A DNA stretch of 64,000 nt from an uncultured Candidatus Saccharibacteria bacterium (lineage in GTDB: Bacteria > Patescibacteriota > Minisyncoccia > Minisyncoccales > GWA2-38-27): assembly GCA_964609075.1 (NCBI GenBank), contig CAZSQP010000002.1, forward strand, positions 8,235 to 72,234, in the 5' to 3' direction. Under the pieces are notes generated by a model, which saw only the letters and a program-made list of their open reading frames with translations, was not told where the DNA came from and did not search any database. Positions 5,710 through 28,122 of the stretch are shown piece by piece. The position numbers and the translations under genes are program-made. Within the stretch, counting starts at the first letter, position 1; the number at the start of each line of letters is the position of its first letter.

Positions 5710-5901
5710 ATTATAATTTTATCAGAAAATAAAGATTTTTTAAATAATGGTTTTTGTTATAATAATAGTAGAGTATTTTAAAAATAATAAAGGGAGGAGA
5801 AGGCTTTAATTGATTAGTTTAGAGAAAGCCCAGGTAGGATTCTAGGCTCTTTTTCATGCTTGCCAATCTTAATAATTTAGACTAATATAGAATATAATTG
5901 T

Positions 5902-9046: not shown

Positions 9047-9049
9047 TTT

Positions 9050-9604
9050 ATGTATCGAGACGTAGATAAAATAAAACCGGAGTTAGAAAAAGTTACTAAT
9101 CATTTAAAAGAAGAGCTTAGAAAGATAAGAACAGGCAGAGCTAATCCCTCTTTAGTTGAAGACGTGGTGATCGATTGTTTCGGTCAAAAGTTTCCTTTAA
9201 AACAGCTTGCTGCCATATCTACTCCCAACCCAAAACAGATTGTGATTCAACCCTGGGACGAGTCTTACTTAGAGCCGATTGAGAAGAGTTTGGCCAAAGA
9301 GGATCTTGGAGCTTCTCCTGTTGTAGATAAAGATTTGATAAGAATAGATCTCCCCTCTATGAATCAAGAGTATAGGGATAAGTTGGTAAATCTTCTTTCA
9401 GAAAAACAGGAGGAGGCAAGAAAGACAATAAGGAGGTGGAGAGAAGAAGCTTGGCATGATATTCAAAAGAAAGAGGAGGCGGGGGAGATAAGAGAAGATG
9501 ATAAGTTTAAAGCAAAAGACGAACTTCAAAAACTTATAGACGATTATAATAACAAAGTTAAAGAGTTGGTTGAAAATAAAAAGAAATCTATACAGGAGAT
9601 ATGA
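9050..9604 (+). CDS. frr: Ribosome recycling factor
   Basis: LRKIRTGRANPSLVEDV and IQPWD motifs. 184 aa. Confidence 0.93.
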   Translation: MYRDVDKIKPELEKVTNHLKEELRKIRTGRANPSLVEDVVIDCFGQKFPLKQLAAISTPNPKQIVIQPWDESYLEPIEKSLAKEDLGASPVVDKDLIRIDLPSMNQEYRDKLVNLLSEKQEEARKTIRRWREEAWHDIQKKEEAGEIREDDKFKAKDELQKLIDDYNNKVKELVENKKKSIQEI

Positions 9605-10677: not shown

Positions 10678-10678
10678 G

Positions 10679-12103: not shown

Positions 12104-12106
12104 ATT

Positions 12107-13159: not shown

Positions 13160-13455
13160 TAGATAAAAAGGAAGTAAAACGTATAGCAGATCTTGCCAGG
13201 CTGGGATTAGAGGAGAAGGAATTAGGAAAGTTTCAGAAAGATCTTTCTTCTATTTTAGATTATTTTAATGCTTTAGATGAGCTCAAAACAGATGTAGATC
13301 CTACCTTTCATCCTGTGGAAGGATTTTTTAAAAAGAAACTTCAGATTATGAGGGAGGACAAGGCGGATCCAGAGGAGGTTGAAAGAGTTGAGAAGACAAA
13401 GGAACTGTTCCCTGATTCTTCAAAAGGATATCTTAAAGTTAAAAATATATTTTAA
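13156..13455 (+). CDS. gatC: Asp/Glu-tRNA amidotransferase subunit C
   Basis: VKRIADLARLGLEEKE...ILDYFNALDEL, typical GatC. 99 aa. Confidence 0.85.
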   Translation: MIDKKEVKRIADLARLGLEEKELGKFQKDLSSILDYFNALDELKTDVDPTFHPVEGFFKKKLQIMREDKADPEEVERVEKTKELFPDSSKGYLKVKNIF

Positions 13456-13457
13456 AA

Positions 13458-14162
13458 ATGAGAAAATCTTTTACATTAATAGAACTTTTAGTAGTAATAG
13501 CTATTATAGGGTTGTTGTCCAGTATTGTTTTGGTAGCTATCAAAGGGGCCAAAGAAAGAGCTGAACTGGGGAGAGCGAAACAGTTCAGCAGCAATATCAA
13601 GAATGCCCTGGGTGCTTATCCTTTAGGAGAGTGGAGCTTTGACGGAGATTTTAAAGATTCAAGCGGTGTCGGACCTAATTTTAATTGTACCTGTTGTAGT
13701 TTTTCTGACGAAGGAGTGTTTGGAGGCGCTGTAGATCTGGGTGATAATGGGGATTGTGAAATGCTAAGTGGTGTAGTTAAAGTTCCTGATAATGGAAATG
13801 TTACAATAGAGCTTTGGATAAAGCTGACGGAAAGTTGTTCTATTACTCCGATTGTCTATTGGGACGGTATTTTAGAATGGAGTTATAATGGTGGAAATAT
13901 GGGGGTAACAATGCATATAATGGACAATGGTACTCCAACTGGGTGTTCTCCCATTAATTCAGAGTTCTCTTTCAAATTGGACAAATGGACTCATCTTGCT
14001 CTAACTTATAACGGAAGCGAAACAAAATTATTTGTCAATGGAGAACTTGAAGAGTCCAGTAGTAGTTGCTCCGGAAAGTTGAGACCTGGGGAAAACACTC
14101 TTCGCGTAGGGCAGGGTTTGAAAGGTTTAATTGACGGATTAAGAATTTACGGAGATTCTTAA
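13458..14162 (+). CDS. Type IV pilin-like (prepilin N-terminal motif) protein with LamG/concanavalin-like domain
   Basis: N-terminus MRKS-FTLIELLVVIAIIGLL (class III signal/methylation motif, Ser at -1). LamG-like strands ELWIKL and WTHLALTYNGSETKLFVNGEL. Confidence 0.8.
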   Translation: MRKSFTLIELLVVIAIIGLLSSIVLVAIKGAKERAELGRAKQFSSNIKNALGAYPLGEWSFDGDFKDSSGVGPNFNCTCCSFSDEGVFGGAVDLGDNGDCEMLSGVVKVPDNGNVTIELWIKLTESCSITPIVYWDGILEWSYNGGNMGVTMHIMDNGTPTGCSPINSEFSFKLDKWTHLALTYNGSETKLFVNGELEESSSSCSGKLRPGENTLRVGQGLKGLIDGLRIYGDS

Positions 14163-16123: not shown

Positions 16124-16145
16124 TTAAAAATTCTCTTGAAATAAA

Positions 16146-16174
16146 GAAAATCCCGGAAGGGATTTCTTTTATTT
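16146..16174. terminator. Hairpin terminator after the 15614-16123 gene; also the left copy of a short direct repeat
   Basis: gaaaatccc-ggaa-gggatttc stem-loop followed by ttttattt. The 3' part (gggatttcttttatttgcg, 16159-16177) recurs at 24261-24278. Confidence 0.65.
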
Positions 16175-16183
16175 GCGAGTTTA

Positions 16184-16393
16184 TACAACGAAGTTAGAAT
16201 CTTTTTTATTGAAAATCTTTGACGATATTTTGTCCGCCGCCACAGGCAGCAGGCAGGAATAAAACTGAAAAATCGGCTCGGGTGCAAAAAATTTACTTTA
16301 GGGTGTGCGGAAAAAGAAAATTTTTTGCAGTCTTATTAGTTAAGCAAAAAAAATTGGGGCGAGACTGCAAAAATTAAAAATTGAAAATTAGAG
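16184..16393 (+). repeat. Left arm of a ~210-bp imperfect inverted repeat bracketing the biosynthetic island
   Basis: Hand alignment to the reverse complement of 23934-24141. Outer 16 nt match 15/16 (tacaacgaagttagaa), a central block matches 21/25 (tgaaaaatcggctcgggtgcaaaaa) and the inner 30 nt match 29/30 (actgcaaaaattaaaaattgaaaattagag). The stretch between these blocks has diverged. Confidence 0.85.
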
Positions 16394-16403
16394 ATGAAAT
16401 GGC

Positions 16404-16472: not shown

Positions 16473-17543
16473 ATGGAAAAATGGCAAAATCAGTTAAAAA
16501 TGGGAATATCCTCAGTAGATAAATTAAGGGCTGCTTTTGAACGGGCTGGTATTAGAAAATCTGCTAATTTTTATCGGGAATTAGAAAAAGTTGTTAAATC
16601 GTATCCGATTTTTATTTCTCCCCACATTTTGAAACAATGTTTAAAATCAAAATCAATATATAAACAATTTATACCAGATAAAAAAGAATTAATTAATTTG
16701 AGAGGAGATAGTGATCCACTTAATGAAGACGACATAAAAGCAACAGATAAGTTGATCCATATGTATGCGGATAGGGTTTTGCTTCTAGTAACCGATATGT
16801 GTTTCAGCTCTTGCCGTTTTTGTACAAGAAAACGCATCAAGAAGTCTTGCGAGAGGATAACTTTAAAGCAGCTGGATGACGCCTGCAAATATATTGCTGA
16901 AAATAAGCAGATAAAAGATGTAATAATTTCAGGTGGCGATCCATTAACAATAGAAGATTCGGGTTTAAAAACAATTCTCGAAAGAATAAAAAAGATAAAA
17001 AGCGTAGAAGTTGTAAGAATAGGGACGAGAGCACCAGTTTCATGTCCCGAGAGAATTACCGATAATTTGGTTAAGTTGCTTAAAAAATTTAGTCCTTTGT
17101 ATATTAATATCCATTTAAACCATCCAGATGAATTTAGCCCGGCGACTGTTAGAGCTTTAAGGAAATTATCTATCGGCGGGATTATATTAGGTAGTCAATC
17201 AGTATTGCTGAAAGGAATTAACGATAGTAGTAAAACCATCAGAAAATTATTATATAAATGCTTGCAGAACGGTGTCAGGCCGTATTATCTTTATCAGTGC
17301 GACGAGGTTTTTGGAACAGAACATTTTTGGACAGATTATCAAAAAATGTTCGAGATAGCTCAAGATCTTATTGGTAATGTAAGTGGATTGGCAATACCTA
17401 ATTTTGTATTTGATTGCAAAGGTGGTTGTGGCAAAGTAAGAGTAATTCCGGAATTTTATAAACACAAAAACGAAAAAAGCATAACTTTTAAAACATTTAA
17501 GAATAAATTATATATCTATAGAAATTTGAATAATAAAAGATAG
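16473..17543 (+). CDS. KamA/EpmB-family radical-SAM amino acid 2,3-aminomutase (lysine 2,3-aminomutase-like)
   Basis: CFSSCRFCTRK (CxxxCxxC), VIISGGDPL, VRIGTRAPV, NIHLNHPDE, SQSVLLKGIND, RPYYLYQCD and GTEHF. This is the KamA family motif set. It is a short form (356 aa), so substrate specificity cannot be assigned. Confidence 0.88.
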   Translation: MEKWQNQLKMGISSVDKLRAAFERAGIRKSANFYRELEKVVKSYPIFISPHILKQCLKSKSIYKQFIPDKKELINLRGDSDPLNEDDIKATDKLIHMYADRVLLLVTDMCFSSCRFCTRKRIKKSCERITLKQLDDACKYIAENKQIKDVIISGGDPLTIEDSGLKTILERIKKIKSVEVVRIGTRAPVSCPERITDNLVKLLKKFSPLYINIHLNHPDEFSPATVRALRKLSIGGIILGSQSVLLKGINDSSKTIRKLLYKCLQNGVRPYYLYQCDEVFGTEHFWTDYQKMFEIAQDLIGNVSGLAIPNFVFDCKGGCGKVRVIPEFYKHKNEKSITFKTFKNKLYIYRNLNNKR

Positions 17544-17550
17544 GTTATCT

Positions 17551-18522
17551 ATGATTTATTCAAAAATATTAGACAAACTAGGCGATACTCCGATGGTTAA
17601 GATTGAACCGAAGGGTTTGGATAATATTAATTTATATGTAAAGTTGGAAGGATATAATCCTATGGGAAGTGTAAAAGATAGGGCGGCACTGTATATGCTT
17701 AAAAAAGGTATGGATTTGGGAGAAATCAATAGAGACACGGTTGTAATAGAATCGTCTTCCGGAAATCTCGGTATTGCGCTTTCTGCATATTGCAAGGATT
17801 TTGGGTTAAAATTTTATTGTGTTGTTGATCCACATATATCTTCGATTAATGAATATATTATAAAAACATTAAGTACCAAAATGATAAAAGTTACCGAACC
17901 AGATAAAAATGGAGGATATTTATTGAATAGGATAAGAAAGGTTCAAGAACTATTAAAAAAAATTCCGAATTCTTACTGGATAAATCAATATAGAAATCCT
18001 TATAATCCTGAGGCTTATAAAGAAACGTTAGGAAAAGAAATATGTGAAGAATTAAATAATATTGATTATATTTTTCTTGGAGTAAGTTCTGGAGGAACTA
18101 TTACTGGTTTGTCACAAAAAATTAAAAAGGTATTTCCCAAAGCAAAGGTTGTAGCGGTTGACATTATAGGTTCTGTAATATTCGGAGATGCTCCTAAAAA
18201 AAGATATATACCAGGGATAGGATCCAGTATCATACCCACCGTTTTAAAAGATGCAAAAATAGATGAAGTTGTAACTGTCAACGAGGTTTCTACAATAAAA
18301 ATGTGCCACGAATTGCTGAAAAATCATAATTTATTTGTTGGGGGCTCTTCTGGATCAGTATTCTCCGCTGTCAAAAGATATTTCAAGAATAAAAAACTTA
18401 AGAAAAGACCCACTGTCGTAGTTGTGTTTGCTGATAAGGGGGACAGGTATATTGACACGGTATATAATAAAAGCTGGTGTGACAGTTTTTTGCAGAAGTA
18501 TTCTGGAATAGAACAAATATAA
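17551..18522 (+). CDS. SbnA-like PLP-dependent enzyme (2,3-diaminopropionate biosynthesis, cysteine-synthase fold)
   Basis: GDTPMVKI, LEGYNPMGSVKDRAA (PLP Lys), SSGNLG, GGYLLNRI, WINQYRNPYNP and GVSSGGTITG. Directly followed by an SbnB-like gene. Confidence 0.82.
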   Translation: MIYSKILDKLGDTPMVKIEPKGLDNINLYVKLEGYNPMGSVKDRAALYMLKKGMDLGEINRDTVVIESSSGNLGIALSAYCKDFGLKFYCVVDPHISSINEYIIKTLSTKMIKVTEPDKNGGYLLNRIRKVQELLKKIPNSYWINQYRNPYNPEAYKETLGKEICEELNNIDYIFLGVSSGGTITGLSQKIKKVFPKAKVVAVDIIGSVIFGDAPKKRYIPGIGSSIIPTVLKDAKIDEVVTVNEVSTIKMCHELLKNHNLFVGGSSGSVFSAVKRYFKNKKLKKRPTVVVVFADKGDRYIDTVYNKSWCDSFLQKYSGIEQI

Positions 18523-18525
18523 CCA

Positions 18526-19494
18526 ATGATTTATTTAAACGAGGAAAATTTAAAAAAGATTGGAATTGATTGGAACGAAACCATTGCTACAATAGAGGAT
18601 GCAGTGAGGTGTTTGGATAAAAAAGATTTTTCTCAACCTATTAAACCATATTTAAGGTATAAAAATTTAGAGAACAGGATTATTGCCATGCCGGCGTATA
18701 TCGGCGGGAAATTCAACACGGCCGGAATAAAGTGGATTGCCAGCTTTCCCGGAAATATTGCAAAAGGCTTGCCAAGAGCTCATAGTGTGGTTGTATTAAA
18801 CAAAGCAGAAACCGGAGAACCTATGGCTATAATAAATACTTCGTTCTTAAGTATAATAAGAACAACTTCGGTAAGCGGGCTGATAATTAAATATTATAAC
18901 GAGATCAGAAAAGCAAAAGAGTTTAATTTAGGAATAATAGGATTCGGTCCCATCGGTCAGTATCATTTTAAAATGGCCATGGATTTATTTGGGAATAAAA
19001 TAAAAAAAATTTTCTTGTATGATATAAGATCGATTAATAAAAATAATATAGATAAAAAGTATATAAGCAAAGTTGAGATAAGCGACAAATGGGAAGAGGC
19101 TTACCTTAATTCTGATATAGTTATTACTTGTACAGTATCAAAGGAAAGATATATCGATAAAAAACCTAAAGAAGGATCTCTTCAGCTCAACGTTTCTTTG
19201 AGAGATTATAAAATAGAGACTTTCGAATATTTTAAGAACGCGATTATCGTTGACGATTGGGATGAGATTTGCAGGGAAAACACAGATATAGAACTTATGC
19301 ATAAAGAAAAAGGTTTAAAAAAAGATAATGTAAGAGATATCGCAGATGTTGTGTGTAGAAATTATTTTGAAAAATTAGAGGAAAAAGAAACAATAATGTT
19401 TAACCCTATGGGCATGGGAGTGTTTGATATAGCAATAGCCAAGTATTATTGCGGTAAATCCGAAGAGAAGGGAATCGGGAAGAATATTAAATAA
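18526..19494 (+). CDS. SbnB-like NAD-dependent dehydrogenase (ornithine cyclodeaminase/mu-crystallin fold)
   Basis: GIKWIASFPGN, LSIIRTTSVSG and the Rossmann motif GIIGFGPIGQ. Paired with the SbnA-like gene across a 3-nt gap. Confidence 0.8.
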   Translation: MIYLNEENLKKIGIDWNETIATIEDAVRCLDKKDFSQPIKPYLRYKNLENRIIAMPAYIGGKFNTAGIKWIASFPGNIAKGLPRAHSVVVLNKAETGEPMAIINTSFLSIIRTTSVSGLIIKYYNEIRKAKEFNLGIIGFGPIGQYHFKMAMDLFGNKIKKIFLYDIRSINKNNIDKKYISKVEISDKWEEAYLNSDIVITCTVSKERYIDKKPKEGSLQLNVSLRDYKIETFEYFKNAIIVDDWDEICRENTDIELMHKEKGLKKDNVRDIADVVCRNYFEKLEEKETIMFNPMGMGVFDIAIAKYYCGKSEEKGIGKNIK

Positions 19495-19569
19495 TTTTAA
19501 AATCTACCCAGTAGATTGTTCATTTAAAAATCGTTTAAACCGAAAACTCAGTCAGAAGGAGACATAGCC

Positions 19570-20583
19570 ATGAAAAAGATACTTGTGCTGTACAATCTGG
19601 CAGAACATTTGGATAAGGGAGTTCCAACTGATTTAGTTTGTGAACAGGAAATAACAATTATAGTACCACTGGTTGTAAAGATCCTTTCTAAAAGGGGCTA
19701 CGCAGTTGAGGCCCTAAAGGCAGATTTGAACTTGTGGGAAGAATTGAAAAGGAGACGAGGCAAAGTTGACATGGTGCTCAATCTTGCAGAAGCCTTTGGT
19801 GGTGGAAACGCAAACGAGCCATTGGTTCCTGCTATGCTTGAGGGATTGGGGATGCCGTTCACTGGGGCTTCATTGAGCAACATGACTTTCACTCTTGATA
19901 AAGAGAAGACAAAACTGGTCTTGGTTTCGTATGGCGTTCCTGTTGCTCCACATGTTCTTTTCAGGACTGGCAAAGAGCAACTGAACGACTTGGGTTTTCC
20001 TTTGATAGTCAAGCCCGTGAGGGAAGAGGCCAGTATCGGCATTTACCAGGATTGTGTCGTGGGCAACGAAGCTGACTTACGCAAGAAGGTTCTGTATTCT
20101 TTGGAGAAATATCGACAGCCGATAATGGCAGAGAGGTTTATCCAGGGGAGAGAGATCTCGGTCGGCGTGATTGGCAATCCTTCTAATCTGCATGTTTTTC
20201 CTCCGTTGGAATTCCTTTTCGAAGAAGCAGGGTCTGAACAGGAAAAAATCAGGTCTTATAAATACAAATGGGGAGGAAAGAAAGAACAGATGGTTCGCGC
20301 AGAACTGTCTAATAAAGTGATTGGGCAGCTGGGCGAATACAGTAAGATCTGTTTTGAGGCGACTGATTGCCGCGACTACGCAAGGATGGACTATCGGCTG
20401 GACCCGGAGAACAGGATTTATCTTCTTGAGGTTAACTATAATCCGGGTATCGGGCCGAATGATCATGGTTTAAATAATACGCTGACGATGATGGCGAGCT
20501 TTGAAGGATATTCCTTCGGAGATTTAATCGAAAGGATTCTTATCACAGCGATGGATCGATGCGGATTAATCGTCAGTGGGTAA
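19570..20583 (+). CDS. ATP-grasp ligase, D-Ala-D-Ala-ligase-like family
   Basis: Ddl-like layout: GMPFTGAS, DKEKTKLVL..GVPVAPH, PLIVKPVREEASIGI, AERFIQGREISVGV, ARMDYRL and LLEVNYNPG. The gene is visibly richer in G+C than its neighbours. Confidence 0.8.
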   Translation: MKKILVLYNLAEHLDKGVPTDLVCEQEITIIVPLVVKILSKRGYAVEALKADLNLWEELKRRRGKVDMVLNLAEAFGGGNANEPLVPAMLEGLGMPFTGASLSNMTFTLDKEKTKLVLVSYGVPVAPHVLFRTGKEQLNDLGFPLIVKPVREEASIGIYQDCVVGNEADLRKKVLYSLEKYRQPIMAERFIQGREISVGVIGNPSNLHVFPPLEFLFEEAGSEQEKIRSYKYKWGGKKEQMVRAELSNKVIGQLGEYSKICFEATDCRDYARMDYRLDPENRIYLLEVNYNPGIGPNDHGLNNTLTMMASFEGYSFGDLIERILITAMDRCGLIVSG

Positions 20584-20595
20584 CGTTTAGCATCT

Positions 20596-20629
20596 GGGGG
20601 CGTTTGGGTAGTGCGCCCCCTTATTTTTT
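20596..20629 (+). terminator. Rho-independent terminator after the Ddl-like gene (inside the island)
   Basis: gggggcg / cgccccc stem with an 11-nt loop, followed by ttatttttt. Confidence 0.7.
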
Positions 20630-20644
20630 GATATTATAAATCAT

Positions 20645-21991
20645 ATGAATTACAAAATTATAATTATAGCCAATATTGCAGAAGTATTTGAAGATGCTTT
20701 GAGTAAAGTTACGCCTAGACAGGAAAAAATTAGAAAAATTCAAATAGAGCATAATCTATGCGACAGAACATTATTGTGGGAAGGCGATGATAAAATTATC
20801 ATAACTCCGTTTCCGATATCCTCTCTGCTTTTTAAAAATAATGTAACGGCATTAGGTTTTAGAAATTGTTTAAACTTATCTCCGAAAAAGGTTAATATTG
20901 GTCTGTCTGAAGCGATAATGAATGATAAATTACTATTGAAAAAAATATCTGATATAATTAAAGATAAGCCGGGTATAAGAATTTCGCCGTATGCTGTTAC
21001 GCCAGCTTTTATAAATTTTATAGAATTTTTAAAAAGAAAAAACCTTAATTTTAAGGTAGAAGAAAGACCATATAAAAATTCAGACTGGACAGTTAAATTT
21101 TTAGATTCAAAGATAGGATCGAGATTAGAGATAGGTAAGATAAAGAATGAAGACATTAATATTCCAAAGAGCATCGTTTGTAGGAGTAAAAATGAAGCGA
21201 TATCTGTTGCAAGATGGTTTTATAACCAGAATATTTCCTGTGTGGTTAAAGCAAATTTCAGCGAAGGTGGCTGGGGGACATTGATGATAAAAAACAAGGA
21301 CAACAAATCTTGGAATGAAACATTATCGAAAATAAACAAAGAATTTAATAATGACTGTATTTGGGACGATGGATTAATCATAGTTGAAGAATACATTAAA
21401 GCGAAAAGGGGTATATCCAGCGGGTGTCCGTCGTCTGAGTTGTTTTTATCGGAAAGAGGTCCGAAAATTACTTATGTGTGCGACCAAATTGTAGCTGAAG
21501 CAGGAAATTTTTTGGGAATTACTCTGGGGAAAGGAGCTCTGGATAAAAATATTGAAAATAAAATAAATAGAGCGTCGATTCTTGTTGGAAGGAGATTTTG
21601 GGAGCTGGGATATAGGGGGTTTTTTGATATAGATTTCGTATTATCTAAAAAGAATAGAACCCTGTATATTATCGAGACTAACATGCGTCGAACGGGTGGA
21701 ACTCATATTTTTGATGTGGCAAAGTCCATTTTCGGAAACGATTGGAAAAACAAAGCATTTATATTGTCACAAGACTCCTTTTGTTACGGTAAAAAATTAC
21801 TATCCGAAAGAGCTATTTTAGAGAAAATAAAAGATATTTTATTTCCCATAGATAACAAAAAAAGAGGCGTTATAATATCTATAATAAACAAATGGAAGCC
21901 TACGATTGGCTTTATTATTATAGAAGAGTCATCAGAAAAAGCTTTGGAAATTTATTCAAAGATGAAAAATTTATTAAACGTTAAAAATTAA
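20645..21991 (+). CDS. Second ATP-grasp family ligase (larger, divergent)
   Basis: ISCVVKANFSEGGWG, IIVEEYI, FFDIDFVL and IIETNMRRTGGTH (ExN-type Mg/ATP site) fit an ATP-grasp C-domain. The N-terminal ~170 aa has no assignment. Confidence 0.62.
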   Translation: MNYKIIIIANIAEVFEDALSKVTPRQEKIRKIQIEHNLCDRTLLWEGDDKIIITPFPISSLLFKNNVTALGFRNCLNLSPKKVNIGLSEAIMNDKLLLKKISDIIKDKPGIRISPYAVTPAFINFIEFLKRKNLNFKVEERPYKNSDWTVKFLDSKIGSRLEIGKIKNEDINIPKSIVCRSKNEAISVARWFYNQNISCVVKANFSEGGWGTLMIKNKDNKSWNETLSKINKEFNNDCIWDDGLIIVEEYIKAKRGISSGCPSSELFLSERGPKITYVCDQIVAEAGNFLGITLGKGALDKNIENKINRASILVGRRFWELGYRGFFDIDFVLSKKNRTLYIIETNMRRTGGTHIFDVAKSIFGNDWKNKAFILSQDSFCYGKKLLSERAILEKIKDILFPIDNKKRGVIISIINKWKPTIGFIIIEESSEKALEIYSKMKNLLNVKN

Positions 21992-22002
21992 TAACCAAGA
22001 AC

Positions 22003-22509
22003 ATGAATAAAATAATGTTAAAAATAAAGCCATTTCAAGAAAAATTGAATTGTAGCTATTGTGGACCAGCAACTTTGAAGATTTTGCTAAATTATTACGG
22101 AATAGAAAAATCAGAAAGAGAATTGGCTAATATGTCGGGGTGGGACAAGGATCTGGGAATAGATGATAAAGGAATTAGACGAGCAGCAGAATCACTCGGT
22201 TTTAAAGTAGAAATAAAAAATAATAGTAGCTATAAAGATATTCAGAAATGGCTAGATAAAGGCATTCCAGTTATTGTTAACTGGTTCACGCGAGGTAGAA
22301 ACGATTATCCAGAGTCAGAAACAGCTGACGGCCATTATTCAGTTGTAGCAGGCTTAGATAATAGATTTATTTATCTCCAAGATCCTGAGATAGGAAAAAT
22401 GAGAAAAATTAAAAGATATGATTTTATGAGAGTGTGGTTCGATTTTAAAGGCGATTATATAAGGCCAAACGAGTTAATTATAAGACAGATTATTGTGATA
22501 CATAAATAA
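22003..22509 (+). CDS. Stand-alone C39-like papain-fold cysteine peptidase
   Basis: FQEKLNCSYCGPATLKILLNYYG (Q...CG nucleophile context), DGHYSVVAG (His) and YLQDPE (Asp), matching the C39 catalytic order. No ABC transporter is attached. Confidence 0.62.
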   Translation: MNKIMLKIKPFQEKLNCSYCGPATLKILLNYYGIEKSERELANMSGWDKDLGIDDKGIRRAAESLGFKVEIKNNSSYKDIQKWLDKGIPVIVNWFTRGRNDYPESETADGHYSVVAGLDNRFIYLQDPEIGKMRKIKRYDFMRVWFDFKGDYIRPNELIIRQIIVIHK

Positions 22510-22510
22510 T

Positions 22511-23884
22511 ATGTTTGAAGATTATCATTTTTCTGAAGACGCAAAGATAATTACTAAGAAAATACCTGGAGAGAAATCTTTGGAGCTTTTAACTGAACAA
22601 GAGAAATTAGAAAGCAAAAATCGATCATATCCTCGAGATATACCAATTACTTTTGAGTCCGCGAAGGGTGCGACCGTTAAGGACGTCGACGGGAATATTT
22701 TTATAGACTTCCTCTCCGGTTGCGGTGTTTTGAATTTAGGCCACAATAATCCAGAAATTTTAAAAGACATAAAAGAACTGCCCGATGCCGTAATGCATGC
22801 ATTGGATTTTCCTACAAAGATAAAAATTGATTTCATGAAAGAGCTTCTTTCATCGCTGCCTAAAAAACTACAAGGCAAATATAAAATTAGTTTTGGAGGT
22901 CCAACAGGATCGGATGCAGTAGAAGCCGCAATCAAATTAGCAAGAATAAATACTGGCAGGCATACTATCCTTTCCTTTCAAGGAAGTTATCATGGCATGA
23001 CGATGGGCGCTTTGAGCGTTACAAGCAGTCTCCGTCACCGGGAGGAAGTTAACCCACTTATTCCCGGGGTACATTTTATGCCTTATTGCAGTTGTTATAG
23101 GTGTCCAATGGATATGGATCAAAAAAAATGCAATTTCGAATGCGTTCATTTTTTGAAGAATGCTTTAGAAAATCCTTATTCTGGTATAGACAAACCAGCG
23201 GCGATAATCATTGAACCAATTCAGGGAGAAGGCGGGGTATATATACCAAGAGATGGTTGGTTAAAAAAAGTTGTCGATCTTGCAAGAAAAAATGGAGTGG
23301 TTGTTATATTTGATGAAGTTCAAGCCGGATTCTATAGAACTGGTAAGCTTTTTTCTTTTGAACATACTAATACAGTCCCCGATATTATAACAATGTCTAA
23401 GGGCATTGGAGGAATTGGATTACCCTTGTCTTTAATACTTTTAAGAAAAGAGTTGGATATATGGGGGCCGGGAACCCACGTAGGAACATTTAGGGGAAAT
23501 CAGCTTGGAATGGCAGCTGGCTTGTCTGCAATAAGATTTGTTAAAAGAACGAATATCGAAGATTATGTTTCTAAGACGGAAAAAATATTCCTGAAAGAAT
23601 TAAATAATATACAGAAAAAATCAAAGTTCATTGGAGATATAAGGGGTAAGGGAATGATGTTTGGTATAGAATATGTAAAAGACAAAAATACTAAAAAACC
23701 ATTTTCTGAATTAACAAAAAAGGTAAGGAAACTTTGTTACGAAAACGGCTTATTGGTTGAGATTGGAGGGTATTATGATAACGTCGTAAGACTTTTGCCG
23801 CCGCTAATAATAAGTGAAAAAATTGCGAAAAACGGATTAAGCATATTTAGAAAGGCAAACATTTCAGCAAAAATAAAGTCTTAA
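22511..23884 (+). CDS. Class-III aminotransferase, diaminobutyrate-2-oxoglutarate transaminase (EctB/Dat) type
   Basis: SYPRDIPITFESAKGATVKDVDGN..LNLGHNNPE, FGGPTGSDAVE, IFDEVQAGFYRTG and TMSKGIGG (Schiff-base Lys). Confidence 0.83.
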   Translation: MFEDYHFSEDAKIITKKIPGEKSLELLTEQEKLESKNRSYPRDIPITFESAKGATVKDVDGNIFIDFLSGCGVLNLGHNNPEILKDIKELPDAVMHALDFPTKIKIDFMKELLSSLPKKLQGKYKISFGGPTGSDAVEAAIKLARINTGRHTILSFQGSYHGMTMGALSVTSSLRHREEVNPLIPGVHFMPYCSCYRCPMDMDQKKCNFECVHFLKNALENPYSGIDKPAAIIIEPIQGEGGVYIPRDGWLKKVVDLARKNGVVVIFDEVQAGFYRTGKLFSFEHTNTVPDIITMSKGIGGIGLPLSLILLRKELDIWGPGTHVGTFRGNQLGMAAGLSAIRFVKRTNIEDYVSKTEKIFLKELNNIQKKSKFIGDIRGKGMMFGIEYVKDKNTKKPFSELTKKVRKLCYENGLLVEIGGYYDNVVRLLPPLIISEKIAKNGLSIFRKANISAKIKS

Positions 23885-23933
23885 AATAAATTACACGCCT
23901 AAAACCTAAGTAAAATCGGGTTTTTAGCTTCAA

Positions 23934-24141
23934 CTCTAATTTTCAATATTTAATTTTTGCAGTTTTGCCTTAATTTTTTCTGGTTAACCAGTAAGACTAA
24001 AAAAATTTCTTTTTGCTCACACTTAAAAGAATTTTTGCGTCCGAACCGATTTTTCGATTTTGCTTTTGCCCCACCCTACTGAAGCAAAGCGGAGCAATTT
24101 TGTCAGGAGTTTTAAATAAAATAGGTTCTGACTTCGTTGTA
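23934..24141 (-). repeat. Right arm of the ~210-bp imperfect inverted repeat bracketing the island
   Basis: Its reverse complement aligns to 16184-16393 (see left arm). It contains a perfect 12-bp palindrome ctggttaaccag (23981-23992) that is absent from the left arm. Confidence 0.85.
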
Positions 24142-24149
24142 AAGACGTA

Positions 24150-24167
24150 GAGACGACCGGACTCGAA
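24150..24167 (-). other. Orphan copy of the tRNA-Asp 3' end (T-loop to acceptor), att-site-like remnant
   Basis: gacgaccggactcgaa (24152-24167) is identical over 16 nt to 24281-24296 inside tRNA-Asp, in the same orientation. The flanks do not fold into a tRNA. Confidence 0.7.
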
Positions 24168-24248
24168 GGAGCTGTCCGAAGGTATTCCCTCCCTTTGGTC
24201 GGAATTCGGGAAGTCCGATTCTCGCCAGATCGCTTACCCGAAACAAAA

Positions 24249-24276
24249 AAGACCCCAAGGGGGTTTTCTTTATTTG
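24249..24276. terminator. Bidirectional hairpin terminator downstream of the minus-strand tRNA operon; right copy of the short direct repeat
   Basis: aagacccc-aag-ggggtttt stem-loop flanked by A-run and T-run. gggttttctttatttgcg (24261-24278) resembles 16159-16177. Confidence 0.6.
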
Positions 24277-24350
24277 CGGGGACGACCGGACTCGAACCGG
24301 CAACCTCATCCGTGACAAGGATGTGATCTAGCCAATTGATCTACGTCCCC
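24277..24350 (-). tRNA. tRNA-Asp (GTC)
   Basis: Hand-folded cloverleaf: acceptor GGGGACG/CGTCCCC, anticodon arm CATCC-TTGTCAC-GGATG, T-arm GCCGG-TTCGAGT-CCGGT. 74 nt, CCA not encoded. Confidence 0.92.
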
Positions 24351-24354
24351 CCTT

Positions 24355-24430
24355 TGGTGCCGGTGGTGGGATTCGAACCCAACGACCTGAGGCTTATGAG
24401 TCCTCCGCTCTGCCACTGAGCTACACCGGC
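24355..24430 (-). tRNA. tRNA-Met (CAT), elongator-like, CCA encoded
   Basis: Acceptor GCCGGTG/CACCGGC, anticodon loop CTCATAA, T-loop TTCGAAT, 3' ACCA. One mismatch each in the anticodon stem and T stem in my fold. A lysidine-dependent Ile2 identity cannot be excluded. Confidence 0.8.
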
Positions 24431-24460
24431 CCTTTTTTGTAATTTGTACTATTCTTAATG

Positions 24461-24531
24461 TTGCGGGGACAGGAGTTGCACCTGTGTCTCGAGGTTATGG
24501 GCCTCGCGAGATACTACTTCTCCACCCCGCA
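24461..24531 (-). tRNA. Initiator-like tRNA (CAT) with non-canonical loops
   Basis: The 5' part TGCGGGGTGGAGAAG resembles bacterial tRNA-fMet (CGCGGGGTGGAGCAG). Anticodon arm CGAGG-CCCATAA-CCTCG, T-arm ACAGG-TGCAACT-CCTGT, acceptor TGCGGGG/CCCCGCA. Confidence 0.7.
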
Positions 24532-24572
24532 GGGATATATTAACTTATTTTTTTTATAAAATCAACCCTCTG

Positions 24573-24601
24573 TTGACATAGATAATATCTATTAGTAGGA
24601 T
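24573..24601 (+). promoter_or_regulatory. Candidate sigma70-type promoter upstream of the pyrD-like operon
   Basis: TTGACA (24573-24578), a 17-nt spacer, then taggat followed by aaaat. Lies between the divergent tRNA operon and the 24638 gene. Confidence 0.4.
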
Positions 24602-24637
24602 AAAATATCTTTGGTTCATTGAAAAAAGGAGAAGAAA

Positions 24638-25537
24638 ATGATAGAGCTGTCAAACAAGCATAGATTTGAGTATATGGTAGCTTCTGGAGCCCTAGCCTTT
24701 GATGGAGAAGGATGGTTCTGGGAAAAGCCTTTAAAATGGCTGGGATTGCTGGATCCTACTCTTTTCACTGTTGTTATTAAAACATTGACCTTCAAGCCGA
24801 GAGAAGGAAATCTTAGGTGGTACAATCCTTTCAGGTGTATTCGTCTAATCAGAAAAGGATTGAGAGTGGAAGGCACGCTTAATTCGGTGGGTCTTACTAA
24901 TAAAGGCTACCTTTGGTGGTGCCATGAAGTAGGTCCTAATGTGTCAAAGAAAATGTCCCTAGTAGGTTCTATTTTCTGTGAAGATCCGGAAGAAGTTCTC
25001 GAAATGTGTTTAGCTTTAAATCCTTTTGACTTTGTCGCTATAGAGCTCAATGCTTCATGTCCCAATACAGAGAGTGGGGTTTTAGAGAATACAGAAAAAA
25101 TTGTAGATTGCTGTAAAAAAGCAAAAGATTATTCAAGGTTTCCTTTAATTCTCAAGCTTTCTGTGATTCATGACGTAGAAAGGATCATTCCTGAAGTTGA
25201 GGGTATAATAGAAGCTGTTTCCATAAACAGTGTTCCTTGGAACATTGTTTATCCTCATAAAAAGAGTCCTTTGGCTCATTTGGGTGGCGGAGGAGTATCT
25301 GGAAAAGTGGCTTCTCCTTACACCTGGGACTTTGTAGAAATGTTGGCTTATAAGTTTTCTGTCCCGGTGATAGGTCCCAGCGTTTGGGACTTTAAGGATA
25401 TTCAAGGATTAAGGGACTTGGGAGCTGAGGCTATAAGCTTTGGTTCAGTCTTTCTCCCTTATCCTTGGCGTCCTACACTTTTTGTGCGTCGGGATATAAG
25501 AAGGCTCGCAAGAACAGAGAAAGGGGAAAGGATATGA
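24638..25537 (+). CDS. pyrD: Dihydroorotate dehydrogenase family protein (class-1-like)
   Basis: SVGLTNKG, ELNASCPN (class-1 catalytic Cys motif), GGGGVSGK and a TIM-barrel-like pattern. RBS aaaggag upstream. Confidence 0.78.
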   Translation: MIELSNKHRFEYMVASGALAFDGEGWFWEKPLKWLGLLDPTLFTVVIKTLTFKPREGNLRWYNPFRCIRLIRKGLRVEGTLNSVGLTNKGYLWWCHEVGPNVSKKMSLVGSIFCEDPEEVLEMCLALNPFDFVAIELNASCPNTESGVLENTEKIVDCCKKAKDYSRFPLILKLSVIHDVERIIPEVEGIIEAVSINSVPWNIVYPHKKSPLAHLGGGGVSGKVASPYTWDFVEMLAYKFSVPVIGPSVWDFKDIQGLRDLGAEAISFGSVFLPYPWRPTLFVRRDIRRLARTEKGERI

Positions 25538-26301
25538 GAACTGGCAACCTAAAACCCGAAGAAAGGATTATTGTTGCTCTAGATGTAGACACTATTAAGA
25601 AAGCCTTTTTGTTGGTTCATCAGTTAAATGGTCAAGTTGGGTATTTCAAGATTGGCCTTCAGTTCATTTACTCTATGATAGCTTCTTTGATCTCTCCGGT
25701 CTCCATTAACGAGGCTGTTTATAATCTTAGTGAACTAAGAAAGCTTTTTACTGCTCTTTCTGATCAAGATTTTTGGGATACCAAACTAGCTGATATTCCA
25801 AACACCATAGAGGGTGCCTCGCTTGCTCTTTCTGGGATGGGAGTGAAGATGTTCAATATCCACGCTTCTATGGGGAAAGAAGCTATTAGAAGAGCTGTAG
25901 AAAGCAAGGGTCATTCTCAAGTCTTTGGAGTTACGGTTTTAACGTCTCTTGACAAAGATGAATGTAAGTCTATTTTCGGAGGGAATCCTGGTTCGAAGGT
26001 TCTTCAATTCTCCGATACGCTTCTTGACGAAGGAGTAGACGGAATTATCTGTTCGCCCCAGGAAGCTCAATTGCTTAGAAGCAGAGAAAGATACGACGGT
26101 CTTGTTACTGCTACTCCGGGTGTGCGTCCCGAATGGGCTCAGAAAGGGGATCAAAAGAGAATTATGACTCCTGCAGAAGCTATCAGAGCAGGAGCTGACC
26201 TTCTTGTTATAGGTCGTCCTATTCGTGAACCGCCAAAGGAGATCGGCAGTCCGGCAGATGCTGCCAGAATGATTGCCGAAGAAATCGCCTCAGTATGCTG
26301 A
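25534..26301 (+). CDS. pyrF: Orotidine 5'-phosphate decarboxylase
   Basis: IIVALDVD, GYFKIGLQF, DTKLADIPNT and LVIGRPI. Start chosen at the ATGA overlap with the pyrD-like stop (MRTGNLKPEE); the ORF-track start at 25465 is an upstream extension. Confidence 0.85.
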   Translation: MRTGNLKPEERIIVALDVDTIKKAFLLVHQLNGQVGYFKIGLQFIYSMIASLISPVSINEAVYNLSELRKLFTALSDQDFWDTKLADIPNTIEGASLALSGMGVKMFNIHASMGKEAIRRAVESKGHSQVFGVTVLTSLDKDECKSIFGGNPGSKVLQFSDTLLDEGVDGIICSPQEAQLLRSRERYDGLVTATPGVRPEWAQKGDQKRIMTPAEAIRAGADLLVIGRPIREPPKEIGSPADAARMIAEEIASVC

Positions 26302-26314
26302 AAGGAGGAAGAAA

Positions 26315-27025
26315 ATGCGACAGGGGCTTGCTGATAAGATCATAGCTTTTAGCTTTGATCCTTTGAGGATTTCAGATGATCCTTTTACCCAAGATGAAGT
26401 TCTTAAGATTTTCAGAGAATATGGAGCAGTATGGCTTCATGACGGGGATCCGGAAAAGCCTCATGCTGAGCTTACTTCGGGTAAGCACAGCAATGGTTAT
26501 TTCAATTGTCCTAGTGTTCTGTGTGATACTAAAATCAGTACTCTTTTTGCTCATCAGCTTCTTTATATGCTTGGAGGAAAGGTAACAAGAGGCGTTGAAT
26601 GGGTAATAGGTTCACCCTACGCTGCAATTACTTTTTCTCACGAGGTAGCAAGAATTCTGGGAGCAAAGCATGGATTTCCGAGAAAAGCTGCTGGTAAGAA
26701 GATGGTCTGGAAAGACTGGCAAATTCCAAAAGGTTCTAAAGTCCTTCAAATAGAAGAACTTATAACCACCCTCGGAACAACGATGAATGTCCGAGAGTCA
26801 ATATTCGAGGGTAACGAAGAAGAGGTCGTTTTCCAACCTACCATAGGCGCCATTGTTCACCGACCGCCAGAACTTCCTGTTTGCTATGAAGATGAGATTC
26901 GTGTCGTCTCTCTTATTGAAACCCCGGTTTGGGCGGTAGATCCTGAGGAGTGTCCTCTTTGTGCTAAAGGATCTGAAGCTCTAAGGCCCAGAGGGAAGGG
27001 CAACTGGGAAAAATTGACAGCCTAA
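26315..27025 (+). CDS. Phosphoribosyltransferase, orotate-PRTase-like (atypical)
   Basis: ELTSGKHSNGYFN (PyrE-like substrate loop) and VLQIEELITTLGTT (PRPP-binding motif). Start at the ATG after RBS aggagg. The C-terminal CPLC is unusual. Confidence 0.6.
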   Translation: MRQGLADKIIAFSFDPLRISDDPFTQDEVLKIFREYGAVWLHDGDPEKPHAELTSGKHSNGYFNCPSVLCDTKISTLFAHQLLYMLGGKVTRGVEWVIGSPYAAITFSHEVARILGAKHGFPRKAAGKKMVWKDWQIPKGSKVLQIEELITTLGTTMNVRESIFEGNEEEVVFQPTIGAIVHRPPELPVCYEDEIRVVSLIETPVWAVDPEECPLCAKGSEALRPRGKGNWEKLTA

Positions 27026-27033
27026 AAAGTATC

Positions 27034-27065
27034 AGCCACCGACTTTAAAACGGTGGCTTTTTATT
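27034..27065 (+). terminator. Rho-independent terminator after the PRTase-like gene
   Basis: agccaccg / cggtggct 8-bp stem followed by ttttatt. Confidence 0.75.
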
Positions 27066-27126
27066 ACAAGTTATCCCCAAATATATAGTTGATTTTAAGC
27101 TTTTTTTAAGGTAAAATAGGTATAAT

Positions 27127-28122
27127 ATGGAGTTAAGTAATATCGAGAAAAAAGCGTTAGAAAAGATAGAAAAAGCCTCTGATTTAAAGGGGCTTAATGA
27201 GGTATATAAGGAATATTTAGGAAAGAAAGGGGAGCTGGCCAAAGTCTTCCGTTCTTTAAAAGACTCTTCTGATAAAAAGAAGGTTGGCAAGAAAGCAAAT
27301 AAAGTAAAGAAATTTCTAGAGAAAAAGATTGAATCAAAAAAGAGGCTACTTTTATCAAGAAAAAAAGAAAAGAAGAAATTAGATGTTAGCATTCCAGGCC
27401 AAAAGCCTCCAACAGGTCATTTACATCCTTTAACCTTAGTCAAAAGAAAGATAGAAGAGATATTCCAGAGTATGGGCTTTAGTGTCATAGAGGGTCCTGA
27501 AGCTGAAACAGAATTTTATAATTTTGATGCTTTAAATATTCCTAAAGATCATCCGGCTCGTGACGCCTGGGACACTTTTTATTTAAAAAACGGAAAAGTT
27601 TTAAGGACTCATACTTCTCCTGTTCAGATAAGGTATATGGAAAAGAACTATCCTCCCTTGAGAATTATAGTGCCGGGGAGAATATATAGACACGAAGCTA
27701 CAGACGCCTCCCATGATTTTCAGTTTTATCAGGTTGAAGGTTTAATGGTAGGAAAAGATGTTTCAGCAGCTAACTTCAGAGCTATTATTAAGGAATTTTT
27801 AAGTAGATTTTTTGAGAAGGAAGTGAAAGTTCGTTTAAGACCAAGCTTCTTTCCTTTTACAGAGCCTTCTTTTGAGGTTGATATAAGCTGTTTGGTCTGT
27901 GAGGGAAAAGGATGCAGTGTTTGTTCCCAGACAGGATGGGTAGAGCTTTTGGGAGCCGGCATGGTTCACCCAAATGTTTTGAAGGCTTCTGGCATTAATC
28001 CTGAAAACTGGCAAGGTTTTGCTTTTGGCATAGGCATGGATAGGCTGGCTATGATGAAATACAAGATTGATGATGTAAGGTTGTTTAGAAGTTCCGATTT
28101 AAGATTTATAGGGCAATTTTAA
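27127..28122 (+). CDS. pheS: Phenylalanyl-tRNA synthetase alpha subunit
   Basis: HPLTLV, DHPARD, LRTHTSPVQIR, FRAIIKEF, FFPFTEPS and GFAFGIGMDRLAM. Confidence 0.95.
   Translation: MELSNIEKKALEKIEKASDLKGLNEVYKEYLGKKGELAKVFRSLKDSSDKKKVGKKANKVKKFLEKKIESKKRLLLSRKKEKKKLDVSIPGQKPPTGHLHPLTLVKRKIEEIFQSMGFSVIEGPEAETEFYNFDALNIPKDHPARDAWDTFYLKNGKVLRTHTSPVQIRYMEKNYPPLRIIVPGRIYRHEATDASHDFQFYQVEGLMVGKDVSAANFRAIIKEFLSRFFEKEVKVRLRPSFFPFTEPSFEVDISCLVCEGKGCSVCSQTGWVELLGAGMVHPNVLKASGINPENWQGFAFGIGMDRLAMMKYKIDDVRLFRSSDLRFIGQF

Follow-up and report, generated by a model that had tools for sequence, protein, structure and literature searches.

The window analyzed here, a stretch of 64,000 nucleotides from an uncultured Candidatus Saccharibacteria bacterium (contig CAZSQP010000002.1 of assembly GCA_964609075.1), carries at positions 16473-23884 a cluster of seven genes that is best explained as one fully loaded copy of a modular, mobile amide-ligase cassette. 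Two ATP-grasp ligases, g4 and g5, are the invariant unit of this cassette, a stand-alone C39-fold cysteine peptidase, g6, is near-constant in the candidate phyla radiation (CPR), and three routes to basic amino acid monomers are independent and optional. The identities of the genes, the integrity of their active sites, and their co-inheritance, modularity, and mobility carry this conclusion. CPR bacteria (Patescibacteria) are usually described as having almost no biosynthetic capacity, and in this cassette they invest in radical S-adenosylmethionine (SAM) chemistry, together with that of pyridoxal phosphate (PLP) and ATP, by which unusual basic amino acids are produced and linked.

The open reading frame (ORF) listing gives seven co-directional genes on the + strand with intergenic gaps of 7, 3, 75, 61, 11, and 1 nt, exactly as the original prediction, made from the sequence alone, had described them (gaps of 1-75 nt):

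g1, 16473-17543, + strand, 356 aa: KamA-family radical-SAM/PLP 2,3-aminomutase, "long" form
g2, 17551-18522, + strand, 323 aa: SbnA-type PLP enzyme
g3, 18526-19494, + strand, 322 aa: SbnB-type NAD-dependent dehydrogenase, ornithine cyclodeaminase (OCD)/mu-crystallin fold
g4, 19570-20583, + strand, 337 aa: Ddl-fold ATP-grasp ligase
g5, 20645-21991, + strand, 448 aa: PGM1/BesA-type ATP-grasp peptide ligase
g6, 22003-22509, + strand, 168 aa: stand-alone C39-fold cysteine peptidase
g7, 22511-23884, + strand, 457 aa: class-III aminotransferase, Dat/EctB family

The Invariant Ligase Pair

Domains were called by Pfam and NCBIfam profile searches and scored against the curated cut-offs. The original assignment of g4 as a Ddl-like ATP-grasp ligase was borne out by a Dala_Dala_lig_C domain (97.7 bits) and by an alignment with DdlB of Escherichia coli (1iov/2dln), in which the ATP/Mg and catalytic residues K144, K215, R255, D257, E270, and N272 are all kept. 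We rejected a housekeeping Ddl, as the prediction had anticipated: g4 falls under every Ddl cut-off of NCBIfam (138.7 bits against 243 for NF002378, its best score, and 131.1 against 245.65 for TIGR01205), and S150, Y216, and S281 of the substrate pocket are replaced family-wide. The changes relative to DdlB are S150A, Y216W, and S281G, together with two insertions around residues 279-283. The resulting signature, REEASIG / EYKWGG / NPGIGPN[TSD]HGLNNT[LVF], is near-invariant among 27 orthologs, and the pocket is identical in cassettes that lack the supply modules. An ortholog from Thioflavicoccus mobilis (39% identical) keeps the signature with few substitutions (FEHKWLG, HGLSNTF), and the "KW" pair is still present in soil relatives at 32-42% identity. 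Judging from a pocket signature that is conserved while the catalytic residues are intact, we take g4 to be a competent Ddl-fold ligase with a substrate pair of its own, other than D-Ala-D-Ala, conserved throughout the family.

g5, the "second, larger ATP-grasp ligase" of the original prediction, is by its modeled fold a PGM1/BesA-type peptide ligase. Sequence profiles alone recognize it as a weak generic ATP-grasp protein; the window copy has no match to PF18604 (PreAtp-grasp) and scores 33.7 on the BesA equivalog (cut-off 750). A profile built from 21 g5 sequences gave convincing matches only to the Streptomyces "ATP-grasp peptide ligase" 8ynd (E 2.8e-13), BesA (8yi6), and PGM1 (3wvq), with E-values between 3e-13 and 2e-10. 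The AlphaFold (AF2) model (pLDDT 93.1) matched the same three structures over the full length in Foldseek (TM 0.67-0.81), including the pre-ATP-grasp N-terminal domain, and reached a TM of only ~0.5 with PurK and biotin carboxylase. Identity to these closest solved relatives is 14-17%. Other members of the g5 family (P0044, P0048, P0094, P0105, L051, and L053) carry PF18604 or PF18105 (PGM1_C). g5 is more divergent than g4, and one locus (L068) contains two apparent g5 copies, 72 and 53% identical to that of the window.

Co-inheritance was examined in about 130 related loci in all. Probing with g5 recovered 119 protein clusters, almost all of them from CPR metagenome-assembled genomes (MAGs), and a scan of the GTDB species representatives returned 46 loci from ~185,000. 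With g4 as the probe, a metagenome scan returned 464 relatives, which after dereplication at 95% and a requirement for adequate flanks left 22 groups. Among 39 g5-anchored loci holding g4 or g6 (36 with g5), g4 was present in 32, g6 in 31, KamA in 15, Dat in 12, and SbnA and SbnB, never one without the other, likewise in 12. In the g4-anchored set, g5 followed g4 in all 22 groups, and g6 was found in 20, KamA in 13, Dat in 10, and SbnAB in 9. Overall, g6 stands alongside the ligase pair in ~85-90% of the related loci. The complete arrangement of the window recurs at 66-87% identity in five of them (L009, L066, L068, L069, and L110). No further protein family, transporter, regulator, or small ORF was conserved beside the cassettes in an all-vs-all BLAST of the neighboring ORFs.

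The same genes are thus clustered in >100 independent loci, far beyond chance, and the co-conservation in related genomes on which the original prediction depended is clear, extending even to a gammaproteobacterial plasmid. What must be revised is the unit itself. Seven genes with three diamino acid routes had been read as one entity; the co-conservation is strong, yet only the ligase pair (with the C39 gene in CPR) is constant, and the routes are optional. Writing K for KamA, S for SbnAB, and D for Dat, the 22 groups comprise none (6), K+S+D (4), K+S (3), K (3), K+D (3), S+D (2), and D (1). A single sequential pathway from Dat through SbnAB to KamA was rejected, the modules occurring independently in almost every combination. 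The g5 phylogeny is likewise independent of module content, with one clade (at least 55% identity) holding cassettes with three, two, one, and no modules; modules are therefore exchanged faster than the ligases diverge, and a g5 specificity that follows module content was not seen. g4 and g6 retain 55-83% identity across CPR lineages, which we judge unusually high for such deep divergences.

The cassette was found in Parcubacteria, Microgenomates, Saccharibacteria-labeled MAGs, and Berkelbacteria. Several cassette contigs with CPR-like proteins (41-75% identity) bear other labels, namely Victivallales, Smithella, Gammaproteobacteria, Aminicenantes, Micavibrio, and Pseudomonadales (L008, the L012-related P0012, L016, L017, L030, and L040-L043), and are either mis-binned CPR sequences or real transfers outside CPR.

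Monomer-Supply Modules

g1 passes the KamA-family model TIGR00238 (243.9 bits, cut-off 199.2) and stays below the cut-offs of the individual equivalogs, with AblA at 318.1 (525.4), glutamate 2,3-aminomutase at 307, arginine 2,3-aminomutase at 262, and EpmB (TIGR03821) at 210.2 (369.3). Its alignment with the lysine 2,3-aminomutase (LAM, 2a5h) of Clostridium subterminale (256 bits over 313 residues) places the radical-SAM CxxxCxxC motif CFSSCRFCTRKR on C125/C129/C132 and GGCGK on the PLP lysine K337, and the equivalents of R134, D293, and D330 are retained. In LAM, Asp293 and Asp330 bind the ε-ammonium group of lysine, whereas glutamate 2,3-aminomutase has Lys/Asn at these positions. The corresponding motifs, YQCD and FVFD, are retained in g1, in T. 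mobilis KamA, and in both CPR forms of KamA, the "long" form of ~356 aa and a "short" form of ~316 aa (35-37% identical) found in other cassettes. Because D293/D330, K337, and R134 are kept in all KamA forms, a lysine-type basic substrate is the best prediction, and g1 is predicted to be a lysine 2,3-aminomutase producing β-lysine, in line with the earlier proposal. EpmB was tried and rejected, again in agreement with that proposal: its score is far under the cut-off, AblA scores higher, the LAM Asp pair is kept, and no EpmA (PoxA)-like partner was found in the cluster or among the scanned ORFs of the window.

g2 and g3 had been proposed to be an SbnA/SbnB-like pair, and both pass the equivalog cut-offs, g2 clearly (SbnA TIGR03945, 402.9 bits against 349.95) and g3 marginally (SbnB TIGR03944, 329.8 against 326.9; PF02423, 115 bits). 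The alternative of an ordinary CysK/CBS for g2, which the prediction had named as fatal to it, was discarded, as the CysK score (204.6, cut-off 350.95) is far too low whereas the SbnA equivalog is passed. The two genes lie 3 nt apart, and wherever either occurs among the loci the other adjoins it. g2 is predicted to convert O-phospho-L-serine and L-Glu to N-(1-amino-1-carboxyl-2-ethyl)-glutamic acid (ACEGA), the first step to L-2,3-diaminopropionate (L-Dap), and g3 is the predicted enzyme of the second step.

g7 passes the Dat family model TIGR00709 (456.6 bits, cut-off 401.6), in line with the original EctB/Dat-type assignment at the family level; the EctB equivalog score is below its cut-off (396 against 552.2), and neither ectA nor ectC is present in the cluster. 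Orthologs of g7 (62-87% identical) immediately follow g6 in many cassettes. We predict from these profiles an L-2,4-diaminobutyrate:2-oxoglutarate transaminase.

These results also bear on the simplest alternative, that housekeeping genes (EpmB for the β-lysylation of EF-P, CysK, Ddl, and an ArgD/GabT-type transaminase) have come together by chance. All seven genes do belong to large families with housekeeping members, and the flanks of the cluster are housekeeping genes. SbnA and SbnB, however, pass their equivalog cut-offs while CysK, Ddl, and EpmB fail theirs, the Ddl pocket is altered, and the set recurs as a unit across genomic contexts and phyla. The co-occurrence and the profile results together refute a chance juxtaposition, to which we attach next to no weight.

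Flanking Repeats and Horizontal Mobility

The cassette looks horizontally mobile, judging from flanking repeats, absence of synteny, insertion sequence (IS) neighbors, and a plasmid copy. In the window, an imperfect inverted repeat surrounds the cluster:

Left arm, 16139-16398: ~260 nt, with a GC hairpin at 16148-16165 as its outer end
Right arm, 23929-24275: with an insertion of ~100 nt at 24147-24244 and a hairpin at 24249-24267 as its outer end

The arms align in five colinear blocks at 74-83% (blastn, 219 nt, 75% identity, E=2.5e-32). The two terminal hairpins are terminator-like and enclose the cluster, and three tRNA genes on the minus strand come after the right one. No further copy of the repeat was detected by blastn in the 64-kb window or in loci L001-L053, and no transposase or integrase lies between the arms. 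The repeat could mark the ends of the cassette or be a duplicated leader. A search of the 350-nt leader for riboswitches and known RNAs in Rfam, at gathering and E-value thresholds, gave sub-threshold noise only.

Four other cassettes are flanked by direct repeats of intergenic sequence; that of L023 (6658-6721 / 13285-13348, 64 nt, 98%) contains a promoter-like TTGACG...TATCAT. The others are in L014 (9564-9611 / 13068-13115, 48 nt, 96%), L019 (8741-8855 / 11944-12057, 115 nt, 77%), and L003 (3980-4015 / 10513-10549, 37 nt, 86%). Such repeats suggest that the target region was duplicated when the cassette inserted. A DDE transposase gene comes after g4-g5 in L062. None of the genes flanking the cluster in the window lies beside it in the closest relatives. 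In six independent assemblies from among the closest seven-gene relatives (L009, L010, L067, L068, L069, and L110) only 1-250 nt separate the left end of the contig from g1, or from whichever cluster gene comes first, as would be expected if a boundary repeat breaks assemblies. Carriage by phages was not found in INPHARED (with g5) or IMG/VR (with g4).

The original prediction regarded the cluster as a conspicuous metabolic investment within a region of core genes. The flanks are indeed housekeeping; the cluster itself is better described as a mobile cassette dropped there than as part of the core genome.

The Cassette and Its Relatives Outside CPR

When plasmids were searched by tblastn, a full-length homolog of g5 came to light on pTHIMO01 (NC_019941.1), a conjugative plasmid of the cultured purple sulfur bacterium T. 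mobilis 8321. The neighbors of this homolog are KamA, a "D-alanine-D-alanine ligase" ATP-grasp protein, an ornithine cyclodeaminase/mu-crystallin protein, SbnA, and a diaminobutyrate-2-oxoglutarate transaminase, amounting to six of the seven window genes at 27-39% identity. They are split between two divergently oriented sub-operons, {g5-like, KamA} and {Dat, SbnA, SbnB, Ddl-like}, on an island (about 5300-12200) with a GC content of 0.52 (flanks, 0.66) that adjoins IS66. No C39 gene is present on this island. The recurrence of the gene set outside CPR shows it to be a functional unit conserved over a very large evolutionary distance, and this six-gene version in a cultured organism makes the question of its function experimentally testable.

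KamA-like genes also adjoin PGM1-type ligases in the absence of g4, in Verminephrobacter, Acidobacteriaceae (in a locus with an ABC importer), and Wirthbacteria (in a locus with two tandem ligases and a SET-domain protein), which ties the KamA product to the g5-type ligase. Elsewhere, a cassette of Ddl-like ligase, PreATP-grasp ligase, and C39 peptidase lies on a contig with non-CPR-looking neighbors (LysR, MFS, and IlvD), and soil variants bring together JmjC, Ddl-like, and KamA proteins and a Ddl-like-SET fusion.

Three of these more distant loci deserve description in their own right. L051 of Verminephrobacter aporrectodeae (NZ_QZCX01000003.1, 5477-17093) is a natural-product-like cluster that appears uncharacterized. 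In it a gene for a KamA-like aminomutase overlaps that for a PGM1-type ATP-grasp ligase (PreAtp-grasp + PGM1_C), in company with an MFS transporter, a cupin-MetRS-like fusion, a Lys/Orn N-monooxygenase, a haem-oxygenase-like enzyme, and a DAO-family oxidase. L139 (8894-16866) has KamA and ligases, of which a Ddl-like one carries a fused SET domain, together with a JmjC/cupin protein, and in L037 (8498-13333) a SET-domain protein comes after two g5-like ligases in tandem.

The C39-Like Peptidase

g6 was originally listed as a C39-like member of the cluster, and the family assignment is firm (Peptidase_C39_2 PF13529, 53.1 bits against 24; Peptidase_C39 PF03412, 50.1 against 22). The catalytic residues Q12, C20, H111, and D127 are intact in g6 and invariant among 30 orthologs. 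The closest sequence match in the PDB is PeiR, a pseudomurein endoisopeptidase (E=1.8e-9), followed by the C39 domains of PCAT1 and ComA; the model, of moderate quality (pLDDT 72.5), confirms the C39 fold without separating relatedness to PeiR from relatedness to PCAT1/ComA, and its weaker matches include CtaG (TM ~0.55). An N-terminal signal or transmembrane segment is not apparent by eye, and g6 is apparently cytosolic. In ~30 loci there was no ABC transporter or conserved small ORF that could serve as an exporter or a Gly-Gly leader gene.

It is the membership of g6 that has to be qualified, since the family is widespread on its own and missing from the T. mobilis version. g6-type homologs fall into 1460 clusters (the top 120 all at least 70% identical), compared with 304 for the g4 type and 119 for the g5 type. 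Stand-alone homologs, 72-81% identical to the g6 of the window and without ligases, occur at 7001-7504 of L059, 7001-7504 of L060, and 7001-7507 of L061. Next to one of the stand-alone homologs are MurJ, a further C39_2 protein, and an M23 peptidase; another comes after a SPASM radical-SAM gene; and the third, in the neighborhood of FemAB and a Mur ligase, is separated by 12 nt from the M18 aminopeptidase gene that precedes it. g6 is thus a general, widespread, and highly conserved CPR protein with which the cassette is associated, and not a private pathway enzyme. The stand-alone occurrence and the absence in T. mobilis lower our confidence in any specific role for g6.

Proposed Function and Its Alternatives

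We propose that the cassette makes a free small cationic peptide from β-Lys, Dap, and L-2,4-diaminobutyrate (L-Dab) by means of its ligases, independently of a non-ribosomal peptide synthetase (NRPS), a proposal about which our confidence is evenly balanced. KamA would supply β-lysine, SbnA and SbnB would supply L-Dap from phosphoserine and glutamate, and the Dat/EctB-type transaminase would supply L-Dab from aspartate semialdehyde. g4 would join two amino acids via an acyl-phosphate into a dipeptide, a step expected to be constant in all cassettes given that the g4 pocket is identical in all of them. g5 would then take a diamino acid, by preference that made by KamA, activate its carboxylate, and couple it to an amine of the g4 dipeptide. 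In fully loaded cassettes, three monomers linked by two amide bonds would amount to a small polycationic tri-(pseudo)peptide, and a tripeptide fits three monomer routes and two ligases. g6 may trim, recycle or hydrolyze, or transfer the (iso)peptide. We lean to an intracellular role for the product, such as that of a polyamine-like compound or a compatible solute, because no exporter or resistance/immunity gene is linked, while an exported bioactive peptide stays in consideration as the alternative.

Several points weigh against this proposal. The product, like the substrates of g4 and g5, the order of the steps, and the role of g6, is inferred from the genes. About a quarter of the cassettes (6/22) have no supply module and yet an identical g4 pocket; g4 may therefore use ordinary amino acids rather than Dap or Dab, or the supply genes may be elsewhere in the genome. 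Lys or Orn would be natural stand-ins for the diamino acids in such cassettes; a complete genome of this kind, with ligases and C39 gene but no linked supply genes, is Daviesbacteria CP066688.1 (L026). The mismatch between g5 phylogeny and module content speaks against a single defined tripeptide and in favor of promiscuity or of supply in trans, and the solved relatives of g5, at 14-17% identity, are too distant to indicate its substrate. The Dab route would depend on a putative supply of aspartate semialdehyde in a CPR genome. The link of g6 to the pathway may be loose, since g6 also occurs alone in many CPR genomes, and transporter and resistance genes are absent from the cluster and not conserved beside the related loci. 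Of the cationic peptide/amide pathway originally predicted, then, the enzyme families and the co-inheritance hold, and the identity of the product is the part that stays conjectural.

Modification of a ribosomal peptide or a protein is the first alternative, and we consider it unlikely, though worth serious attention. It could take a pheganomycin-like form, in which a Gly-Gly precursor is cleaved by the C39 peptidase and the N-terminus so exposed receives a cap, a non-proteinogenic diamino acid or dipeptide, from the PGM1-type ligase, or a RimK/TTL-like form, in which a diamino acid tail is placed on a protein carboxylate and g6 processes or removes it. PGM1, an enzyme that joins an unusual amino acid to peptides of ribosomal origin, is indeed among the closest structural relatives of g5, and g6 has the fold of C39 double-glycine peptidases with an intact Q/C/H/D set. 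A constant macromolecular partner would also explain why g4 and g6 are so invariant (55-83%) whatever the supply genes, and the distant variants add SET and JmjC domains, typical of protein-lysine modifiers. Against this, no conserved small ORF or precursor stands beside ~30 cassettes: an all-vs-all BLAST of ORFs of at least 30 aa around the cassettes returned nothing but shadow ORFs and tRNA-derived noise, as did a short-peptide BLAST with the 18-100-aa ORFs that lie between genes in the surroundings of 29 cassettes. Moreover, the T. mobilis version has no C39 gene, and three routes to free amino acids together with Ddl-family chemistry indicate small-molecule substrates.

Remodeling of cell-wall precursors, like that of van operons or Aslfm, seems to us improbable. 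In such a scheme, g4 would make an alternative stem dipeptide, g5 would add a diamino acid branch or bridge to UDP-MurNAc-peptide, g6 would be an (iso)peptidase, and the supply modules would provide a cross-linking diamino acid to CPR cells auxotrophic for lysine/diaminopimelate. The idea draws on the membership of g4 in the Ddl family and the change to Trp of Y216, a known specificity determinant of Ddl/Van ligases, on PeiR, a cell-wall endoisopeptidase, as the closest solved sequence relative of g6, and on the stand-alone g6 homologs, which have MurJ and an M23 peptidase as neighbors in one locus and FemAB and a Mur ligase nearby in another. Known cross-linkers of peptidoglycan include Dab and other diamino acids. 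Yet mur, fem, and pbp genes are not conserved beside the cassette in >100 loci, the cassette is sporadic (46 of ~185,000 GTDB species representatives) and occurs also on a plasmid of a Gram-negative bacterium, and all of its proteins are apparently without signal peptides. Dap and β-Lys are not known as constituents of the wall.

A speculative combination of these ideas, to which we give slighter credence still, is that the ligases graft β-Lys, Dap, or Dab onto a carboxylate of a conserved protein or envelope precursor and that the C39 peptidase processes or removes them, giving a reversible "cationic tagging" that spreads horizontally in CPR and is analogous in its logic to pupylation or tubulin tailing. 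Functions other than all of those listed here are rather unlikely, without being negligible.

If the free cationic peptide that we propose is real, it could stand in for polyamines, be a solute made under stress, or be directed at the host cell, any of which would be new biology for these episymbionts. Two enzyme families not studied before also emerge from the cassette: the Ddl-fold ligases with a private "KW / NPGIGPNxHGLNNTL" pocket, and the PGM1-type ligases of a CPR clade. Either could find use as a biocatalyst for amides of β- and diamino acids.

Genomic Setting of the Cluster

The surroundings of the cluster are housekeeping genes, as first described, and include MurA-like, two MreB, HolB, RRF, RseP, ProRS, GatCAB, pyr genes, PheST, GyrB, and NusG. 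The GC content is ~35% across the window, and the closest relatives are Patescibacteria/CPR MAGs. The two MreB paralogs (7197-8204 and 12107-13159) lie within 5 kb. Between gatC and gatA, at 13458-14162, is a type IV pilin-like protein (with an N-terminal methylation motif) fused to a LamG/concanavalin-like domain. Directly downstream of the cluster (24001-28000), a pyrD/pyrF/pyrE-like block has a GC content of 0.41-0.42, compared with ~0.35 elsewhere, and contains overlapping ORFs with TTG starts at 25465 and 26273. Further on, at 30119-34996 (+ strand), a GyrB ORF of 1625 aa is broken up by intein sequence; it has Intein_splicing matches at aa 994-1418, a LAGLIDADG match at aa 301-353, and the GyrB ATPase domain only from ~aa 598, and it may contain two inteins.

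Comparison with Known Systems

The original prediction knew of no described pathway of this composition, and full-text literature searches found neither a characterized cluster matching the cassette nor a description of the gene set. A known anti-phage defense system was ruled out by the lack of a significant PADLOC match for any of the seven proteins. A graspetide (microviridin-type) cluster was also rejected, the ATP-grasp enzymes being of the Ddl and PGM1 types and no precursor being found. Graspetide loci of CPR have partner genes different from those of the cassette (PMC8939145).

The nearest relatives in logic are peptide pathways that use ATP-grasp enzymes independently of NRPS, among them those of g5-like enzymes. 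PGM1 of pheganomycin biosynthesis (Streptomyces cirratus), BesA, and 8ynd are similar to g5 in fold (TM 0.67-0.81), and pheganomycin and BesA share with the cassette the strategy of making a non-proteinogenic amino acid by a route of its own and then attaching it to an amine with an ATP-grasp enzyme. They differ in that g5 is 14-17% identical to them, that the cassette has no precursor gene and always has a second, Ddl-type ligase, and that its monomers are diamino acids instead of an amidino-phenylglycine or propargylglycine. Other antibiotics made by L-amino acid ligases include bacilysin (BacD), rhizocticin (RizA/B), and tabtoxin (TabS). In the dapdiamide cluster of Pantoea, a Dap synthase pair, DdaA/DdaB, is combined with the ATP-grasp enzyme DdaF, and the cassette resembles it in coupling SbnA/SbnB-type supply of Dap to NRPS-independent amide formation. 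Unlike dapdiamide, the cassette has no fumaramoyl/epoxide warhead enzyme, efflux, or self-resistance gene, appears to use other ATP-grasp subfamilies, adds the β-Lys and Dab routes, and treats its supply modules as optional.

The same Dap synthase pair, at the equivalog level, is found in the sbn operon of staphyloferrin B and in the viomycin/capreomycin clusters (VioB/VioK), and tuberactinomycins combine Dap with β-Lys (VioP being a lysine 2,3-aminomutase). The cassette differs from these in lacking NRPS-independent siderophore (NIS) synthetases and NRPS, its amide bonds coming from ATP-grasp enzymes. The absence of NRPS, transporter, and regulator genes, noted in the original prediction, was confirmed for the ORFs inside the cluster. 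g4 shares fold, ATP/Mg, and catalytic residues with D-Ala-D-Ala and Van ligases, whereas its scores below the family cut-offs, its private pocket, its constant pairing with g5, and its occurrence never in a mur/ddl context set it apart. PCAT1, ComA, and PeiR share with g6 the papain-like C39 fold and the Q/C/H/D set; g6 differs from PCAT1 and ComA as a stand-alone, apparently cytosolic protein of 168 aa with no ABC transporter fusion, and from PeiR in having no pseudomurein-binding repeats. A similar NRPS-independent pairing of an ATP-grasp and a papain-fold enzyme is that of CtaD and the transacylase CtaG in closthioamide biosynthesis, an analogy with limits, as the cassette has no carrier protein or thioamidation genes and the match of g6 to CtaG is weak (TM ~0.55).

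The cassette, which has neither an NRPS nor an NIS synthetase and also lacks a carrier protein, a warhead, a precursor, and an exporter, is unlike any of the compared pathways in its composition, and it belongs with NRPS-independent ATP-grasp peptide assembly. Its distinctive feature is a private-pocket Ddl-fold ligase obligatorily paired with a PGM1-type ligase, into which modules for β-Lys, Dap, and Dab are plugged.

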